This document shows positions 15,628-22,860 of a DNA stretch of 32,000 bases, piece after piece (within the stretch, counting starts at the first letter, position 1; each line of letters opens with the position of its first letter). Source of the DNA: Candidatus Heimdallarchaeota archaeon (GTDB lineage: Archaea > Asgardarchaeota > Heimdallarchaeia > JABLTI01); NCBI GenBank assembly GCA_030614005.1, contig JAUWKS010000013.1, positions 31,466-63,465 of the forward strand, read 5' to 3'. The notes below the pieces were generated by a model. The model did not search any database and had not been told where the DNA came from. It was given only the letters and a program-made list of their open reading frames with translations. Made by a program: the position numbers and the translations under genes.

Positions 15628-15797
15628 AATTTTCACCAAAACTACAACTTTTTTCTTTCCCAATAGTAATTGTTTCTAGTTTTAAAAAACGTTCCTCAAG
15701 AGGAATAGGTGAAGAGAAATAATCAAAACTTTGTTAAAGTGAAATAAACCTTATTCTAAGGTAGTTGAAATTAACCTTTCAATCCAAGTTGATTGTA

Positions 15798-17903
15798 ATG
15801 AAGAAACTAGCTATTGGTATTGATATAGGTGGAACGTTCACAGATATTATTATCCAAAACAAAGACTCTGGCGATATTATCAAACAGCTAAAGGTTGCAA
15901 CAATACTCAAAAACCCCGAAGAAGCCATAATTGCTAGCTTACAACAAGAACTAATCAGTGAAGACATAGACTTTGTCCAACAAATCTATCATGCAACAAC
16001 TATTGCAACAAATGCTTTTCTTGGTCAAGTAAATTTGGAGTTACCAAAAACAGCGCTCGTAACAACGAAAGGTTTTCGAGATATATTAGAAATAGGTCGA
16101 CAAAGAAGAGCCTCTCTCTATGACTTTTCTTTTGAGAGACCAAAACCCATTATTCCTAGACGTTTTAGATTTGAAATTAAAGAGCGATTAAACCACAAAG
16201 GAGAAATAATCTGCCCTATTGAATTAGATATTCTACCAAAAATAAGTGCCGCTATCAAACAAGAAAATATCAGTAGCGTTGCAATTACTCTTCTCCACTC
16301 ATATAAGAACTCAATCCACGAACAAAAAATCAAAGAATACTTTGAGAAAAATCACAAAGATCTTTATATTTCAACTAGCTTTGAAGTTTCTCCTGAACAC
16401 AGAGAGTTTGAACGAACAAGCACAACAGCAATAAATGCAATATTAATGCCGATAGTTTCTAGATACATAAATTCGTTGGCAGAATCATTTAGAGAATTTG
16501 GTTTTAAAGCTCCTTTGTTCATAATGCAAAGTAATGGTGGAGTCAGTAAATCAGATCAAATACAAAAATTGCCTGTAAGTATAATTGAAAGTGGCCCATC
16601 AGCTGGCGTAGTTGCTTCTCGATTTTATGCTGAATTCCTTGATCTTAATAGAGTACTTTCTTTTGACATGGGTGGCACAACCGCAAAAGCAGGTTCAATT
16701 GTAAATAAAACGATTACTTTAACCTCCGAATATGAAATAGGTGGCGATGTACATAGCGGTCGAATAACAAAAGGAAGTGGTTATCCTGCAAGATTTCCAT
16801 TCATTGATTTAGCTGAAATTTCGTCTGGTGGAGGATCAATTGCTTGGGTAGATAACGGAAATGCTTTGCGCGTTGGACCAATTAGCGCTGGGTCAGAACC
16901 AGGACCCGTCTGTTATAATCAGAATGGTATTGATCCCACAATTACTGATGCAAATCTAGTTCTAGGTCGGTTAAACCCTGAAGGCTTGCTCAATAAAACA
17001 TTTAAAATATTTCCTGAATTATCAAAGAAAAGTATAAAGAAGAAAATAGCTTCAAAAATAGATCTGAGTGTCACTGAAAGTGCACTGGGAATCATTGAAA
17101 TTGCTAATATAAATATGAGTCGTATTTTACGAATAGTAACAGTTGAACGTGGATTAGACCCAAGAGATTTCATTTTAATTGCTTTTGGTGGTGCAGGACC
17201 ATTGCACGCGTGTGCCTTAGCTAATGAGCTTGAAATGACTCATATAATAATTCCAAATAATCCTGGACTTTTCTCGGCAATGGGATTACTGTTCACTGAT
17301 GTAAAGCATACAAATGTAAAATCAATAAGAGAAAAGATTGAGAATCTTGATTACCTGATGATTGAAAATGAATTTGGAAAATTGGAAGAAAAGGGAATTG
17401 CTGTTTTAGATGATGAGGGTTTCAAAGGAAAAGATATAATACATCAGAGATTTGCAGAATTACGGTATGTAGGACAAGGTTTTGAATTATTAGTTCCACT
17501 TTCAGACATTAAATTAGTAGCTGATAATACCTCTTCTAAAATTGAGAAGCTCTTTAATCAGAAACATAAAATAATTTACGGTTACATTATGGAAAATGAA
17601 GAGGTTGAAGTGGTAAATATAAGAGTTAATAGTCTTGGTCTTATCAAAAAACCAATTCTAAAGAAAGTCAAACCTGGAGAGAAAAAGCCAATAAAAGAAG
17701 CTATAGTTGATCATAGGCAAGTATTATTCGACAAACAAAAGGAATATATTCAAACACCAATTTATGATCGAACAAAACTTCTAGCAAAGAATGAAATTGC
17801 TGGTCCTGCCATAATAGAACAATACGATTCAACAACAATCCTTCCCCAAAACTGGAAAGCAAAAGTGGATGAATTTGGGTTAATTCATTTGCATAGGATG
17901 TGA
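15798..17903 (+). CDS. Hydantoinase/5-oxoprolinase subunit A (ATP-binding)
   Basis: GIDIGGTFTD, HATTIATNA, ESGPSAG, DMGGTT, GPISAGSEPGP, AFGGAGPLH. Start at ATG 15798 (ORF-track start 15765). Confidence 0.93.
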   Translation: MKKLAIGIDIGGTFTDIIIQNKDSGDIIKQLKVATILKNPEEAIIASLQQELISEDIDFVQQIYHATTIATNAFLGQVNLELPKTALVTTKGFRDILEIGRQRRASLYDFSFERPKPIIPRRFRFEIKERLNHKGEIICPIELDILPKISAAIKQENISSVAITLLHSYKNSIHEQKIKEYFEKNHKDLYISTSFEVSPEHREFERTSTTAINAILMPIVSRYINSLAESFREFGFKAPLFIMQSNGGVSKSDQIQKLPVSIIESGPSAGVVASRFYAEFLDLNRVLSFDMGGTTAKAGSIVNKTITLTSEYEIGGDVHSGRITKGSGYPARFPFIDLAEISSGGGSIAWVDNGNALRVGPISAGSEPGPVCYNQNGIDPTITDANLVLGRLNPEGLLNKTFKIFPELSKKSIKKKIASKIDLSVTESALGIIEIANINMSRILRIVTVERGLDPRDFILIAFGGAGPLHACALANELEMTHIIIPNNPGLFSAMGLLFTDVKHTNVKSIREKIENLDYLMIENEFGKLEEKGIAVLDDEGFKGKDIIHQRFAELRYVGQGFELLVPLSDIKLVADNTSSKIEKLFNQKHKIIYGYIMENEEVEVVNIRVNSLGLIKKPILKKVKPGEKKPIKEAIVDHRQVLFDKQKEYIQTPIYDRTKLLAKNEIAGPAIIEQYDSTTILPQNWKAKVDEFGLIHLHRM

Positions 17904-17907
17904 AGCT

Positions 17908-19545
17908 GTGAAAGAAAATCAAGTAGATATCATTACTCGAGAGGTCATTCGTGGAGGATTAGAATTTACTGCAGAAGAAATGGGTATCATTTTACGAAAC
18001 GCAGCGTATAGTACCAATATTAAGGAAAGAATGGATCACAGTTGTTCTTTATTCGATTACAAAGGACGAATGTTAGCTCAAGCAGAGCATATACCTGTAC
18101 ATCTCGGTGCTATGCCGCTTACTGTGAAGAGTGTTATAGCAACTTTTGAAGGTGAAATCAAACCTGGGGATTCATTTATTCTAAACGACCCATATTTAGG
18201 TGGAACTCATCTGCCTGATATTACTATTGTTACACCGATATTTTATCAAAAAGAATTGGTTGGTTATTCTGTAAGTAGAGCACATCACAATGATGTTGGT
18301 GGGATGGTTCCAGGATCAATGCCCGGAAATGCTACCGAAATATTCCAAGAAGGGCTGAGGATTCCTCCGGTAAAAATCGTTCAAAAAGGCGTTGTTAACA
18401 AAGATATCCTAGATATTATAATGATTAATTCTCGAACGCCTAAACTACGAAAAGGAGATTTAATGGCTCAACTGTCTGCAAATTGGACCGGAGAGAAACG
18501 ATTAATAGAATTAATTCAGCGAAAAGGATTAAAAACATATAAATTAGCTGTTGATGAAATCTTGAATTATTCTGAAAGAAGATTTCTAGCAATTATTAAG
18601 AATTTTCCAGACAAAGAAGCTGAAGGCATCGACTTTATGGATGACGATGGGATTAGTGATGAACGAATCAAACTCGTTGTCAAAGTAAAGAAAATTAAAA
18701 ACCATCTGACTTTTGATTTCACAGGTACTTCTAAACAAGTACGAGGTGCTGTTAATTGCCCAATTGCTGTAACATTATCTGGTGCTTATTTTGTTTTACG
18801 ATCAATAACTGATCCAACAATACCTGCAAATGAAGGGTTATATCGTCATTTAACAGTTATTGTTCCAGAAGGGTCAATATTAAATGCCAAATCTCCCGCG
18901 GCTGTTGTCGGAGGAAACGTAGAAACATCTCAAAGAGTTGTTGATACTTTGCTAAAAGCATTTTCAAATATTCTTCCAGATATAATTCCTGCAGCATCAC
19001 AAGGAACAATGAATAATCTCATCATAGGTGGAATGGATGTAAATAATCACCCCTTTACTTTTTATGAAACAATCGGCGGTGGAAGCGGAGGTACTCCAAG
19101 CAAAGATGGTGTTGATGGAATACATACCAATATGACGAATACTATGAATACACCCATCGAGGAAATCGAAGCAAGATATCCACTAAGAGTTCTGGAATAT
19201 TCATTGAGAAATAATAGCTCTGGTAAAGGCAAGTATCGTGGTGGTATTGGAATAATTAGAGCATTTCAAACGGAAGTGCCTGTGATAATTAGTCTTCTGG
19301 GTGAAAGGCAAAAAACCGCTCCTTGGGGATTACAAGGAGGAAAAGATGGAAAGCAAGGAGAATATTACAAAATTACTACTGGGAATGAAAAAATAGTTTT
19401 ACCAGGAAAAGGCACTTTTACATTAGACGCTGGAGAAGTAATCGTTATTGAAACCCCTGGAGCCGGTGGCTGGGGTAAACCAAAGGAAAGAAGTAAAGCA
19501 AGATTAGCTGAAGATACATTAGATGAAAAAGTATTTGAAAAATAA
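17908..19545 (+). CDS. Hydantoinase B/5-oxoprolinase family subunit
   Basis: STNIKERMDHSC, HIPVHLG, NDPYLGGTHLPD, HHNDVGG, GGNVETSQR, GAGGWG; 4 bp after subunit A. Confidence 0.93.
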   Translation: MKENQVDIITREVIRGGLEFTAEEMGIILRNAAYSTNIKERMDHSCSLFDYKGRMLAQAEHIPVHLGAMPLTVKSVIATFEGEIKPGDSFILNDPYLGGTHLPDITIVTPIFYQKELVGYSVSRAHHNDVGGMVPGSMPGNATEIFQEGLRIPPVKIVQKGVVNKDILDIIMINSRTPKLRKGDLMAQLSANWTGEKRLIELIQRKGLKTYKLAVDEILNYSERRFLAIIKNFPDKEAEGIDFMDDDGISDERIKLVVKVKKIKNHLTFDFTGTSKQVRGAVNCPIAVTLSGAYFVLRSITDPTIPANEGLYRHLTVIVPEGSILNAKSPAAVVGGNVETSQRVVDTLLKAFSNILPDIIPAASQGTMNNLIIGGMDVNNHPFTFYETIGGGSGGTPSKDGVDGIHTNMTNTMNTPIEEIEARYPLRVLEYSLRNNSSGKGKYRGGIGIIRAFQTEVPVIISLLGERQKTAPWGLQGGKDGKQGEYYKITTGNEKIVLPGKGTFTLDAGEVIVIETPGAGGWGKPKERSKARLAEDTLDEKVFEK

Positions 19546-19661
19546 GCCTTAAAAGTAGTTTTTTGATAAAAAGTGCTAAATCTAAAGATTTATTTTCTCA
19601 TAACTGACAAAATTGTGTAAGAAACGTTTGAGTTTAGCGTTTCGTATCGGAGCAATGCATA

Positions 19662-21644
19662 GTGACCACGCCAGCTAAGGGAGATAAGATAAAAACAAAA
19701 ACCCCCTACAAGACGCAACCCGATCTTGATAAAATCATTTCAGGTGGTAATTGGTACAAAAAACTCATTGAAACAATGGATGATGGAATTATTGCTACAG
19801 ATATGAATAGAATTATTATTTATGTTAACCCTGCTGCTTGTAAAAAATTAGGTTATACTGAAGAAGAATTACTTGGAAAAAGCTCTTTAGAAATTGTTGT
19901 TGAAGAAGATCGCGCTAGAGTCACTCGAGAATCAGCAATACGCTTTAGTGAAAAAGTCTCTACACAATATGAAATTACTTTTAAAACAAAAGTTGGCTCA
20001 AAATTTCCCGTTCTGATTAGTGGTTCACCAATTTTGGATGAGAATAATCAAACACTTGGCACTTATGCATTAATTACTGATATCAGAGATAGAAAGGTTG
20101 TAGAAAAAGAGTTACGGGATAAGAATAATGAATTACAAAATCTCTATAACAATTTATTGGAGTTATATCAGCAACTGGGTGCAATAATCGCAGAGACAAC
20201 TACAGTACCCTCAACTGAAATTTTGCTTTTCACCTCCAAGCATTGTGTGTATTGTGCACCTGCAGAAGAGGTCCTACAACAGGTACTTGCTTCTTACGCT
20301 GGAAAAATCACTTACAGAAAAGTGGATATTGATGAAGAGCCTGAGTTGGCAGCAGAACATGAGATTCTTTCCCTCCCAACAATTGCAATTGGCGAAGAAC
20401 AACTAACTTCTGTTCCTGATATCTATAAATTACATTCAGCATTATTCAGTGCATTAGTGCCCGAAGAAAAGTTCAGAAGAACAAGACAAGAATTAGATAA
20501 TATTATTGATAATTCACCTGTTGCTATTTTTACTATAAATTCTAAAGGAACGGTTACCAAAAGTAATCCTCTTGTCGGGATACTGACCGGTGTGGAATTA
20601 CAAGACATTACAGGTCATGATGCACTAAATCCAGAAAAGAATGGAGAATCACTATTTCCAAAATCACTCATTAAGCTTTTTAAGAAAGGCCTAAAAGGTA
20701 AGACAATAACTGAAGATCGTTTACGTATCAAAGACTATTCCTCTGAGAAAGATGATCCATTTTCAATTGTTAGTTTCAAAGTAGTTCCAATGGCTACTAA
20801 AGAGGGAGAAATAAACGAAATTCTTGTCTTATGTGAAGATGTCACTAAACTGGCTATGCAAGAAGAAGCATTGAGTGAATCCTATACCAAATTAGAAGAC
20901 CTGAATGACAAGCTTTTACAATTAAATAAAGATAGGTCGAATTTTGTTGAACTTACTTCGACTAAACTTTTAGAACCATTAAGAAACTCAAGAGAGTTGA
21001 TAGATACTATTCTTCGTGGGCAATTAGGCATGCTGAGTGAAGAACTATTTGGCACAATGGAATTTCTGAGAAATAACTTAGAAAAAGTATCAAAAAGTAT
21101 TTTTGGCATTATAGAATTTTCAAATATAGAAGCACAAGACTTCAGTTTGAAACTTGATGAACATAACCTTAAGGATCTTATTTCACAAACAACTAGTTTA
21201 GTTGGGTCTGTAGGTATACAAAAAAGCTTTATTGGGACAATTGAACTTTCTAATGAAGTCACTGTTTGGTGTGACTCTGAACAAATTATTCGTGTTTTAA
21301 GAAACTTAGTTTTGAATGCTATCCAATTCACTCCTATAAATTGTAACATTCACTTTTCAGCTGAAGATAAGAATGGTCTTGTTGCTGTTTATTTGAAGGA
21401 TAACGGTTTTGGTATTGCTAAGAAAGATCTTAAAAGAATATTTGAGCAATATGTAAAAACTGATCCCGAAAGTTCTGGGTCGGGTTTAGGGTTATCCATG
21501 GTAAAAAGTTTAGTGGAAGCTCACGGAGGAACCGTTAGAGCAGAATCGGAAGGCAAAAACAAAGGTTCAACGTTTATGTTTACTTTGCCAACCAATAAAG
21601 CATCATATGAAAAACTAATCTCTAAGAAAGAGAAATCAAATTAG
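19662..21644 (+). CDS. Cytoplasmic sensor histidine-kinase-like protein: PAS-PAC, thioredoxin-like, PAS, His-less HisKA-like, HATPase_c
   Basis: PAS (IETMDDGIIATD..YVNPAACKKLGY..EELLGK) and PAC (GTYALITDIRDRK); CVYC plus KVDIDEEPELA..ILSLPT; second PAS; N box NLVLNAIQF, G1 DNGFGI, G2 GSGLGL. Confidence 0.9.
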   Translation: MTTPAKGDKIKTKTPYKTQPDLDKIISGGNWYKKLIETMDDGIIATDMNRIIIYVNPAACKKLGYTEEELLGKSSLEIVVEEDRARVTRESAIRFSEKVSTQYEITFKTKVGSKFPVLISGSPILDENNQTLGTYALITDIRDRKVVEKELRDKNNELQNLYNNLLELYQQLGAIIAETTTVPSTEILLFTSKHCVYCAPAEEVLQQVLASYAGKITYRKVDIDEEPELAAEHEILSLPTIAIGEEQLTSVPDIYKLHSALFSALVPEEKFRRTRQELDNIIDNSPVAIFTINSKGTVTKSNPLVGILTGVELQDITGHDALNPEKNGESLFPKSLIKLFKKGLKGKTITEDRLRIKDYSSEKDDPFSIVSFKVVPMATKEGEINEILVLCEDVTKLAMQEEALSESYTKLEDLNDKLLQLNKDRSNFVELTSTKLLEPLRNSRELIDTILRGQLGMLSEELFGTMEFLRNNLEKVSKSIFGIIEFSNIEAQDFSLKLDEHNLKDLISQTTSLVGSVGIQKSFIGTIELSNEVTVWCDSEQIIRVLRNLVLNAIQFTPINCNIHFSAEDKNGLVAVYLKDNGFGIAKKDLKRIFEQYVKTDPESSGSGLGLSMVKSLVEAHGGTVRAESEGKNKGSTFMFTLPTNKASYEKLISKKEKSN

Positions 21645-21726: not shown

Positions 21727-22860
21727 ATGCAATATCGTACTTTAGGCAAAACAGGACGAAAAGTATCAGTACTAGGTTTTGGCGCAATGCGTTTACCCAC
21801 AATAAAACTTGGGGAACAAGCAATCAAACATGATGAAGCAATAGAATTGATAAGAAAAAGCATAGATGCTGGAGTAAATTATGTTGACACAGCATATAAT
21901 TATCATAGCGATGAAAGTGAGCTTGTTGTAGCAAAAGCATTGAAGGATGGTTATCGAGAGAAAGTTACTCTTGCAACAAAAGCACCAATTTGGAAGAAAG
22001 AGTACGATAAAGAAGAAAGCTTTGATAAATATCTCAATGAACAATTGAAAAAATTAGAAGTAGAAACGATAGATGTGTATCTTTTCCATGCTTTAAATAC
22101 TAAAACATGGAAGAAACTGAATGAAATAAAAGGAATTGAAAGTGCAAAGAAAGCTAAAGCAGCAGGAAAAATAAATCACTTGGCCTTTTCATTCCATGAT
22201 AAACCAGAGCTTCTGAAAGAGATAATTGATTCTGAAGCATTTGAGGTAATGCTTGTACAGTACAATATTCTTGATACTGTAAATGAAGAAATGATCAAGT
22301 ATGCATCTGAAAAAGGGATTGGTGTAGTTGTAATGGGTCCAGTAGGAGGAGGCCGACTTGCTGGTGTTCCACCTGAGAAACTAGAACAATACTTGTTACC
22401 AGGGAAGAAGAATTTTGCTGATTTAGCATTAAGGTATGTTTGGAATAATCCATACGTTGACGTTGCATTATCTGGTATGGGTACAGATGAAATGGTAGAG
22501 GAAAATCTCGCTTTGGCTTCTAACGAAGAGTACACTTTAACAGATACTCAGAAAAAAATGGCTGATGAATTAGGTGTCAAATTTAAAGGATTGACAGATA
22601 ACCTTTGTACAAACTGTAAATATTGTATGCCGTGTGAACAAGAAGTAAATATTGCATTCATCTTTCAAGCACTGATAAATTACCAAGTTTACGGACAAGA
22701 AGACGAAGCGAAAAGAAGGTACAGCATAATAGGTAAAGAAGATTGGGCTTCTGGAAAAAATGCTGAAGCTTGCACAGAATGTGGTGAGTGTTTAGAAAAA
22801 TGCCCGCAGAAAATACCTATTATTGATCAATTAAAGAAAGCACACGAAATCCTGACTTAA
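21727..22860 (+). CDS. Aldo/keto reductase with C-terminal 4Fe-4S dicluster (COG1453-type)
   Basis: YRTLGKTG..VSVLGFGAMRLP, GVNYVDTAYNY, LATK, AFSFH, MGPVGGG, CTNCKYCMPC and CTECGECLEKCP. Confidence 0.92.
   Translation: MQYRTLGKTGRKVSVLGFGAMRLPTIKLGEQAIKHDEAIELIRKSIDAGVNYVDTAYNYHSDESELVVAKALKDGYREKVTLATKAPIWKKEYDKEESFDKYLNEQLKKLEVETIDVYLFHALNTKTWKKLNEIKGIESAKKAKAAGKINHLAFSFHDKPELLKEIIDSEAFEVMLVQYNILDTVNEEMIKYASEKGIGVVVMGPVGGGRLAGVPPEKLEQYLLPGKKNFADLALRYVWNNPYVDVALSGMGTDEMVEENLALASNEEYTLTDTQKKMADELGVKFKGLTDNLCTNCKYCMPCEQEVNIAFIFQALINYQVYGQEDEAKRRYSIIGKEDWASGKNAEACTECGECLEKCPQKIPIIDQLKKAHEILT

Follow-up and report, generated by a model that had tools for sequence, protein, structure and literature searches.

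The 32,000-nucleotide stretch of DNA analyzed here (hereafter the window) comes from a Candidatus Heimdallarchaeota archaeon (GCA_030614005.1, contig JAUWKS010000013.1, positions 31,466 to 63,465 of the forward strand). It carries a gene for a kinase-like protein of 660 amino acids (aa) in which a thioredoxin (Trx) domain is embedded between two PAS domains. An earlier note, made from the letters of the DNA, had drawn attention to this domain, and the peptide that it quoted is the exact translation of positions 20214-20456 on the forward strand (residues 185-265). The start positions of the orthologues coincide with the GTG start of the 660-aa open reading frame (ORF), and the domains follow one another in the order PAS1, coiled coil, Trx, PAS2, DHp-like hairpin and HATPase_c (Table 1). 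Pfam and a full-length AlphaFold2 model both place PAS1 and PAS2 on either side of the Trx domain, as the note had claimed. The full-length model is moderate in quality (predicted local distance difference test (pLDDT) 71.5, predicted template modeling score (pTM) 0.35) and shows PAS1, a 36-residue helix (142-177), a β-α-β-α-β-β-α unit (187-265), a short helix (275-284) and PAS2, followed in the C-terminal half by two long DHp-like helices (395-451 and 460-490) and the ATPase domain. The coiled-coil linkers said to flank the Trx domain are thus found on one side: the upstream segment is a long heptad-type helix, whereas the downstream one is only the short helix that caps the N-terminus of PAS2. 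A membrane segment is absent from the 660-aa protein, the top 19-residue window having a mean Kyte-Doolittle value of 1.2, and the protein is therefore taken to be soluble. The stretches encoding the CxxC motif of the Trx domain and the H-box of the kinase half are identical, with no differences, insertions or deletions, in public marine-sediment and cold-seep metagenome contigs from three studies, one of the runs compared being possibly the source of this metagenome-assembled genome (MAG) itself. These matches indicate that neither feature is an assembly error. Elsewhere in the gene, marine-sediment run X7 differs at 20642 (G for T) and at 21176 (C for T), probably through strain variation, and indels occur in no run. 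The records listed as covering the stretch include no RNA data set.

Table 1. Features of the gene for the Trx-containing kinase-like protein, in coordinates of the window (position 1 is its first letter).
Feature	Position	Strand	Basis and remarks
Whole gene, 660-aa ORF with GTG start	19662..21644	+	ORF list, translation, Pfam, full-length model
PAS1, residues 31-141	19752..20084	+	Pfam PAS (E 6.9e-25, residues 32-141), PAS_9, PAS_4; five-stranded sheet (model)
Linker helix (helical 142-177) and short loop into Trx	20085..20213	+	Heptad Leu/Ile, invariant Asn; model; 30% invariant columns
Thioredoxin-fold domain, residues 185-266	20214..20459	+	PF00085, PDB profile matches, domain model, Foldseek, VIA-align
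CVYC redox motif, Cys195/Cys198, N-terminus of helix 1	20244..20255	+	Codons TGT GTG TAT TGT
Pro239 of LPT motif, thioredoxin cis-proline position before strand 3	20376..20378	+	Aligns with the cis-Pro in 1nho and in 1j08
Connector after Trx, with the N-cap helix of PAS2, residues 267-286	20460..20519	+	Helix 275-284 (model); relative P0051 ends where the connector begins
PAS2, residues 287-394	20520..20843	+	Second PAS stretch in Pfam and TIGR00229; sheet (model)
DHp-like two-helix hairpin without phospho-acceptor His, residues 395-490	20844..21131	+	No Pfam HisKA match; H-box alignment
H-box position, Thr434	20961-20963	+	Alignment of orthologues and paralogues
HATPase_c catalytic/ATP-binding domain, residues 491-645	21132..21596	+	Pfam HATPase_c, E 2.8e-22 (PF02518, residues 538-644)

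We compared the Trx domain with known families and structures. Pfam Thioredoxin (PF00085, CL0172) matches residues 187-245 with a score of 29.8 bits (E 6.5e-7), the cut-off being 23.5. Pfam Glutaredoxin (PF00462) is barely over its own cut-off (23.2 against 22.9). The MJ0307-type small archaeal thioredoxins (TIGR00411) rank first among NCBIfam models for the 81-residue piece (E 8.5e-12). The equivalog cut-off of this family is missed (45 bits versus 92.75), and the domain is not equivalog to these free-standing thioredoxins. A profile of the domain, built from 25 orthologues, matches the solved structures of the C-terminal unit of Pyrococcus PDO (E 5e-11), Mt0807 (1nho, 8e-10) and Mj0307 (1fo5, 6e-9), and the columns of the CxxC motif and of the proline before strand 3 align in these matches. 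When modeled alone with a deeper alignment, the domain adopts the β-α-β-α-β-β-α topology (AlphaFold2, pLDDT 85.3, pTM 0.76), in which helix 1 has the CxxC motif at its N-terminus and Pro239 directly precedes strand 3. This model superposes on thioredoxins with a Foldseek probability of 1.00 (TM 0.71-0.80) and with VIA-align Z scores of 12-13 (root mean square deviation 1.6-2.0 Å over 83-86 residues). Every feature tested places the domain in the thioredoxin fold class, as proposed in the earlier note, and its catalytic signature is complete. In the same VIA-align search, the N-terminal domain of SasA (1t4z, 94 residues) and a KaiB (4kun) each reach Z 11.3. A KaiB-like docking domain and a redox thioredoxin cannot be told apart by shape alone, but they are by sequence motifs and profiles.

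The small archaeal thioredoxins (Mj0307, 1fo5; Mt0807, 1nho; Pyrococcus PDO, 1a8l/1j08; TIGR00411) share with the window domain the fold of ~85 residues, a CxxC motif that opens helix 1 and a cis-Pro motif ahead of strand 3. They are free-standing and carry CPYC, whereas the domain described here lies inside a signaling protein, reads CVYC and is conserved over its whole length far beyond what a housekeeping thioredoxin needs. The motif of phage T4 glutaredoxin is also CVYC; a literature search on 'CVYC' returned nothing relevant.

We next turn to conservation, for which percentages come from the alignment of 25 orthologues and motif counts from regular expressions run over 46 family proteins. 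The Trx domain has a mean pairwise identity of 82% with 46% invariant columns, and the 20-residue connector leading into PAS2 is the most conserved stretch of all (88% and 65%). PAS1, PAS2, DHp and the catalytic/ATP-binding domain (CA) lie at 56-64% identity with 17-24% invariant columns. The Trx module together with the helix that follows it is thus the most constrained part of the protein. CVYC is retained in 45 of the 46 proteins, the remaining one having CVYG. The LPT proline is invariant in all 25 aligned orthologues, with an LPT match in 45 of the 46 proteins, and the elements of the substrate groove (CxxC, the LPT loop and the T-x-x-P loop before helix 3) are invariant in the alignment. 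Constraint of this strength on the Trx module would fit a domain that does chemistry while contacting its neighbors. The carrier of CVYG is P0034, an orthologue from a JGI metagenome; it is a natural monothiol variant, or else its contig of 3.6 kb contains an error.

Outside the Trx domain, Cys60 in PAS1 (19839-19841) and Cys537 (21270-21272) and Cys561 (21342-21344) in the ATPase domain are conserved in 23-24 of the 25 orthologues and are candidate intramolecular targets of the Trx domain. A regulatory disulfide between Cys537 and Cys561 is unlikely, the two residues being located at opposite ends of the 17-residue N-box helix, as judged from the secondary structure of the model. The invariant His258 was considered as a replacement phospho-acceptor and rejected: the HSALF motif to which it belongs also terminates a free-standing Trx of 84 aa from a sister Heimdallarchaeial family, and His258 is therefore part of the Trx fold.

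The kinase half departs from the 'sensor kinase' label that the gene had been given. None of the 45 orthologues with a DHp region has the phospho-accepting His of the H-box, whose position is occupied by Thr, Ser, Lys or Asn. The family H-box reads F-V-E-x-T-[ST]-x-x-L-x-x-P-L, so that the acidic residue following the His position is replaced as well; Thr432 is invariant, and residues 433 and 434 are mostly Ser or Thr (20955-20966 encode Thr432-Lys435). Pfam HisKA (PF00512) matches neither the 660-aa protein nor its orthologues, whereas in six paralogous kinases of the same genome the aligned position reads S-H-D-L-[RK]-x-P-L-R. The 25 orthologues show no variation in the N, G1, F and G2 boxes (N548, N552, D580, G582, G584, F594 and G606-L611), and ATP binding is probably retained. 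Without the residue that defines the class, the protein is not a functional histidine kinase. Since the His is absent family-wide, the output cannot be a canonical His-Asp phosphorelay, and signaling must be non-canonical. A REC domain was found neither in the window nor in five orthologous neighborhoods; 23 matches elsewhere in the genome exceed the REC cut-off, and a distant partner is thus possible.

In a search with the DHp-CA region, the orthologues (at least 50% identity) all have the Trx domain and none has a HisKA match, whereas the next matches are 27-34% identical and all have HisKA. Gain of the Trx domain and loss of the His therefore mark the same isolated clade, and no intermediates were seen.

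We assessed how widely this architecture occurs. A search of 5.8 billion protein clusters with residues 165-275, which covered proteins of 363-1155 aa, found 44 clusters that are 70-100% identical over this region and share an identical Pfam architecture. Their sources, where named, are Heimdallarchaeota or other Asgard MAGs, one of them labeled Thorarchaeota. In total, the family amounts to about 46 protein clusters. Among 1.84 billion representatives at 50% identity, a profile search gave two below E 1e-30, followed by a gap to unrelated multi-thioredoxin proteins; no other combination of a Trx with a kinase domain is present in the best 150 of 931 profile matches, and other Trx subfamilies may still hold such fusions. 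Each of the 11 genomes of the family to which the window belongs has a full-length orthologue with an intact ORF (56-87% identity), and no other family of the class has one. When 300 Asgard genomes were searched with linker, Trx and connector together, full matches were confined to the same family; in the 289 other genomes, matches were limited to the Trx core and did not exceed 44% identity. Among 185,579 species genomes, a pattern scan picked out 11 loci, most of which (nearly all) bear the label Heimdallarchaeota. The searches revealed no split or shorter forms save one 334-aa record labeled partial, and an ESM Atlas feature search with residues 150-660 returned generic PAS-HisKA-HATPase clusters, none with a Trx domain. 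The architecture is thus real, conserved, rare and specific to one Heimdallarchaeia family, which bears out the rarity suspected in the earlier note. A PAS-Trx-PAS-HATPase protein is not mentioned in the published censuses of Asgard and archaeal two-component systems (PMC5847659, PMC10343646); this design without the His is undescribed.

The closest free-standing relatives of the Trx domain are thioredoxins of 84-135 aa in other Asgard genomes, up to 44% identical. The 84-aa sister-family protein mentioned above has CPYC and the terminal HSALF motif and is about 44% identical to the window domain. A more informative relative, P0051, comes from a Hodarchaeales MAG (L021:2648-4450, annotated as 'glutaredoxin family protein'); it is 600 aa long and has the domain order GAF, GAF, coiled coil and a Trx domain with CVHC. 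Its last 117 residues align with residues 151-267 of the window protein (43% identity, E 1e-24), so that both the heptad linker and the Trx domain are covered. P0051 ends right after Trx helix 3, where the window protein runs on into PAS2, and has no PAS2, DHp or ATPase domain. The coiled-coil-plus-Trx module is thus homologous in the two proteins, and the sensor domains are GAF in P0051, not PAS. Because P0051 shares linker and Trx, the window protein looks like a fusion of a sensor/coiled coil/Trx unit with a PAS/DHp/ATPase unit. The coiled-coil-plus-Trx piece is a module of its own, able to occupy the site usually taken by an output domain. P0051 is rare: its cluster holds 3 sequences, and it was not found in 82 genomes of the class that were searched.

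We propose, as a plausible but tentative reading, that the protein is a thiol/disulfide-gated, ATP-dependent signaling protein that operates without a His-Asp phosphorelay. It is probably a dimer. PAS1 would connect to a parallel coiled-coil helix bearing a small, archaeal-type thioredoxin that its CVYC and cis-Pro motifs suggest to be redox-competent. In the thioredoxin fold, the N- and C-termini are both located at the end opposite the active site. The active site of the Trx domain should therefore face outward from the helical axis, and the highly conserved short helix joins the domain to PAS2. PAS2 would in turn act on the His-less DHp-like hairpin and the intact GHKL ATP-binding domain. 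According to this proposal, a thioredoxin-reductase system or oxidants would set the dithiol or disulfide state of the Trx domain, and this state would reach the ATP-binding domain by way of the conserved connector and PAS2. The outcome might be a change in ATP binding or hydrolysis, or else in how a partner that is not a DHp histidine is phosphorylated or bound. The genome contains two thioredoxin-reductase-like genes (G000:C11:1647-2531 and C35:8521-9414), the two best such frames being 309 aa long, and their products could serve as reductants of the Trx domain. A fusion of REC with thioredoxin reductase has been reported for Heimdallarchaeota (PMC5847659) and is not seen in this genome.

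The nearest experimental precedent that we found for the His-less kinase half would be MsmS and RdmS (MA_type 2) of Methanosarcina acetivorans, which lack the H-box and bind and hydrolyze ATP without autophosphorylation (PMC11784639). Like the window protein, they are soluble archaeal multi-domain proteins with a HATPase domain and no H-box, a likeness by sequence features only. They sense via GAF-bound heme and cysteines, whereas the window protein has a Trx domain and neither a GAF nor a heme domain. They also lack the whole H-box region (PMC11784639), whereas the window protein keeps a DHp-like hairpin in which the His and the neighboring acidic residue are replaced.

More generally, redox sensing by histidine-kinase-type proteins is known to involve heme, flavin, Fe-S clusters or single cysteines. 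In ArcB and RegB/PrrB, kinase output is set by cysteine oxidation, with isolated PAS or DHp cysteines forming intermolecular disulfides. These are true His kinases without a thioredoxin fold, and the window protein resembles them in principle only.

Several points weigh against thiol gating of the ATPase half. Oxidized and reduced thioredoxins differ little in structure, and a Trx domain is thus no obvious allosteric switch. The window contains no response regulator or other evident partner. At a pTM of 0.35, the full-length model leaves the predicted inter-domain arrangement of the 660-aa protein unfixed. Finally, the C-terminal coiled-coil-plus-Trx module of P0051 favors a Trx domain that is a controlled enzyme over one that is a sensor. 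A complex prediction for the Trx domain with a DHp-CA dimer scored 0.00, which is evidence neither way.

Given the terminal position of the module in P0051, the Trx domain may be no less a controlled output than a sensor. PAS1, or GAF in P0051, would then act via the coiled coil on the access to, or the pairing of, two Trx domains, yielding a signal-controlled disulfide reductase or oxidase with specific targets, and the His-less ATPase half would serve as a second control or as a scaffold. We regard this as a serious possibility, though a doubtful one. Besides the domain order of P0051, it draws on the Val that follows the first Cys in both fused modules (CVYC and CVHC), as opposed to CPYC in the closest free-standing sister-family Trx, and on the invariance of the substrate-groove elements. 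In the window protein, however, the Trx domain is internal, and the peak of conservation in the connector to PAS2 suggests that information flows onward from it; no candidate substrate gene is linked, and the terminal arrangement is known from the one rare relative only.

In a broader proposal, the coiled-coil-plus-Trx unit would be an unrecognized signaling module of Heimdallarchaeia, in which a PAS or GAF sensor controls a pair of redox-active Trx domains that, in the window protein, is wired in cis to a His-less GHKL domain acting as a redox-gated Ser/Thr kinase or an ATP-driven switch. This broader proposal is unlikely as a whole. If true, it would provide a one-polypeptide analogue of thioredoxin-controlled kinase signaling such as ASK1-Trx.

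Metal sensing had been suggested in the earlier note. We considered that the two CxxC pairs of a coiled-coil dimer bind a metal ion or a [2Fe-2S] cluster, and that iron, oxygen or redox state is sensed by gain and loss of the cluster, as in some glutaredoxins whose CxxC lacks proline. CVYC has no proline, the heptad linker is expected to place two Trx domains next to each other, and cluster-bridged glutaredoxin dimers with CSYC or CGYC motifs are known. Known cluster-bridging glutaredoxins require glutathione as a co-ligand, however, and the cis-Pro loop L-P-T is that of classical thioredoxins. The sequence offers no hint of a metal site beyond the two Cys, and the CVYG member would permit thiol chemistry but not ligation by four Cys. 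A metal or cluster site is thus distinctly unlikely.

Very unlikely, in our view, is a docking module of the KaiB or SasA N-terminal type that recruits a KaiC-like ATPase or another partner, its cysteines being incidental or structural. The superposition on 1t4z and 4kun comes close to thioredoxin level, weak NCBIfam KaiB matches are found (E 0.04), the genome has several KaiC-family ATPase genes, and relatives of the small Trx type are fused to KaiC-like ATPases, as in P0136. Yet KaiB, the SasA N-terminal domain and P0136 (AAYC) are without CxxC, whereas both Cys and the cis-Pro motif are conserved throughout the family described here. The thioredoxin profile leads that of KaiB by many orders of magnitude, and Pfam KaiB (PF07689) gives no match at E 0.01 or below. 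SasA of Synechococcus carries its KaiB-like domain at the N-terminus next to DHp, docks on KaiC through it and retains the phospho-His. The window protein has its domain between two PAS domains and has lost the His, and the likeness thus lies only in the thioredoxin-like fold. A relic in decay, in which a dead kinase retains a functionless leftover domain, could be suspected from the loss of the phospho-His and of any HisKA match and is hardly credible, given intact ORFs in all 11 family genomes, invariant ATP boxes, a very highly conserved Trx module and independent metagenome contigs free of frameshifts and stops.

To our knowledge, the only well-studied thioredoxin fold in kinases of this type is the cysteine-free KaiC-docking domain of SasA. 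Here, a complete thioredoxin active site sits within the signaling chain, in its most conserved module. If the state of the Trx domain controls the ATPase, or the reverse, this would be a new coupling of thiol redox to ATP-dependent signaling. The protein would offer a defined, expressible object for learning what His-less archaeal 'kinases' do and would open a first functional route into signal transduction in Heimdallarchaeia, to which eukaryotes are closer than to any other archaeal group. Set against this, domain shuffling is common in signaling proteins, the family is small, its organisms are uncultured and the mechanism is one that we infer.

Directly upstream of the kinase-like gene, on the same strand, lie the A and B genes of a hydantoinase/oxoprolinase family (HydA and HydB, 15765-19545), whose best NCBIfam similarity is to caprolactamase, far below the cut-off. 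In the 116-base spacer between HydB and the kinase-like gene (19546-19661), seven consecutive T immediately follow the HydB stop, and an AT-rich stretch, TTTATTTT, lies about 60 bases ahead of the GTG start; these could be an archaeal terminator and promoter. Downstream, the kinase-like gene is separated from PlsY, which is on the opposite strand, by a gene (21727-22860) whose product is a fusion of an aldo-keto reductase with a 4Fe-4S dicluster (ferredoxin-like) domain. The only other locus with the aldo-keto reductase gene in this place is that of the closest relative (G010), and in more distant members PlsY follows directly. The order HydA, HydB, kinase-like gene, PlsY is kept in all family members examined, and unrelated genes follow HydB in other Heimdallarchaeial families. 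We rejected gene order as functional evidence, the whole 16-kb region being equally conserved across the family. The P0051 gene lies ~2 kb downstream of a HydB gene (L021:55-741), and nothing else is common to the two loci. The proximity of HydB to a Trx module there is suggestive, a lead rather than evidence.

Other Trx-like proteins came to light in the searches. P0131 (81 aa) is a free-standing small Trx-like domain with the degenerate motif AAYC, and in P0136 (316 aa) a Trx-like domain with AAYC is fused to a KaiC-like ATPase, an arrangement reminiscent of the KaiB-KaiC pairing. A further type, P0083, is widespread in Asgard genomes and combines an N-terminal CxxC thioredoxin with two V4R domains in ~490-550 aa. 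It is represented in this genome by L018 (G000:C1:55943-57541), and a KaiC-family ATPase gene (G000:C1:59872-60564) is located about 2.3 kb downstream of it.

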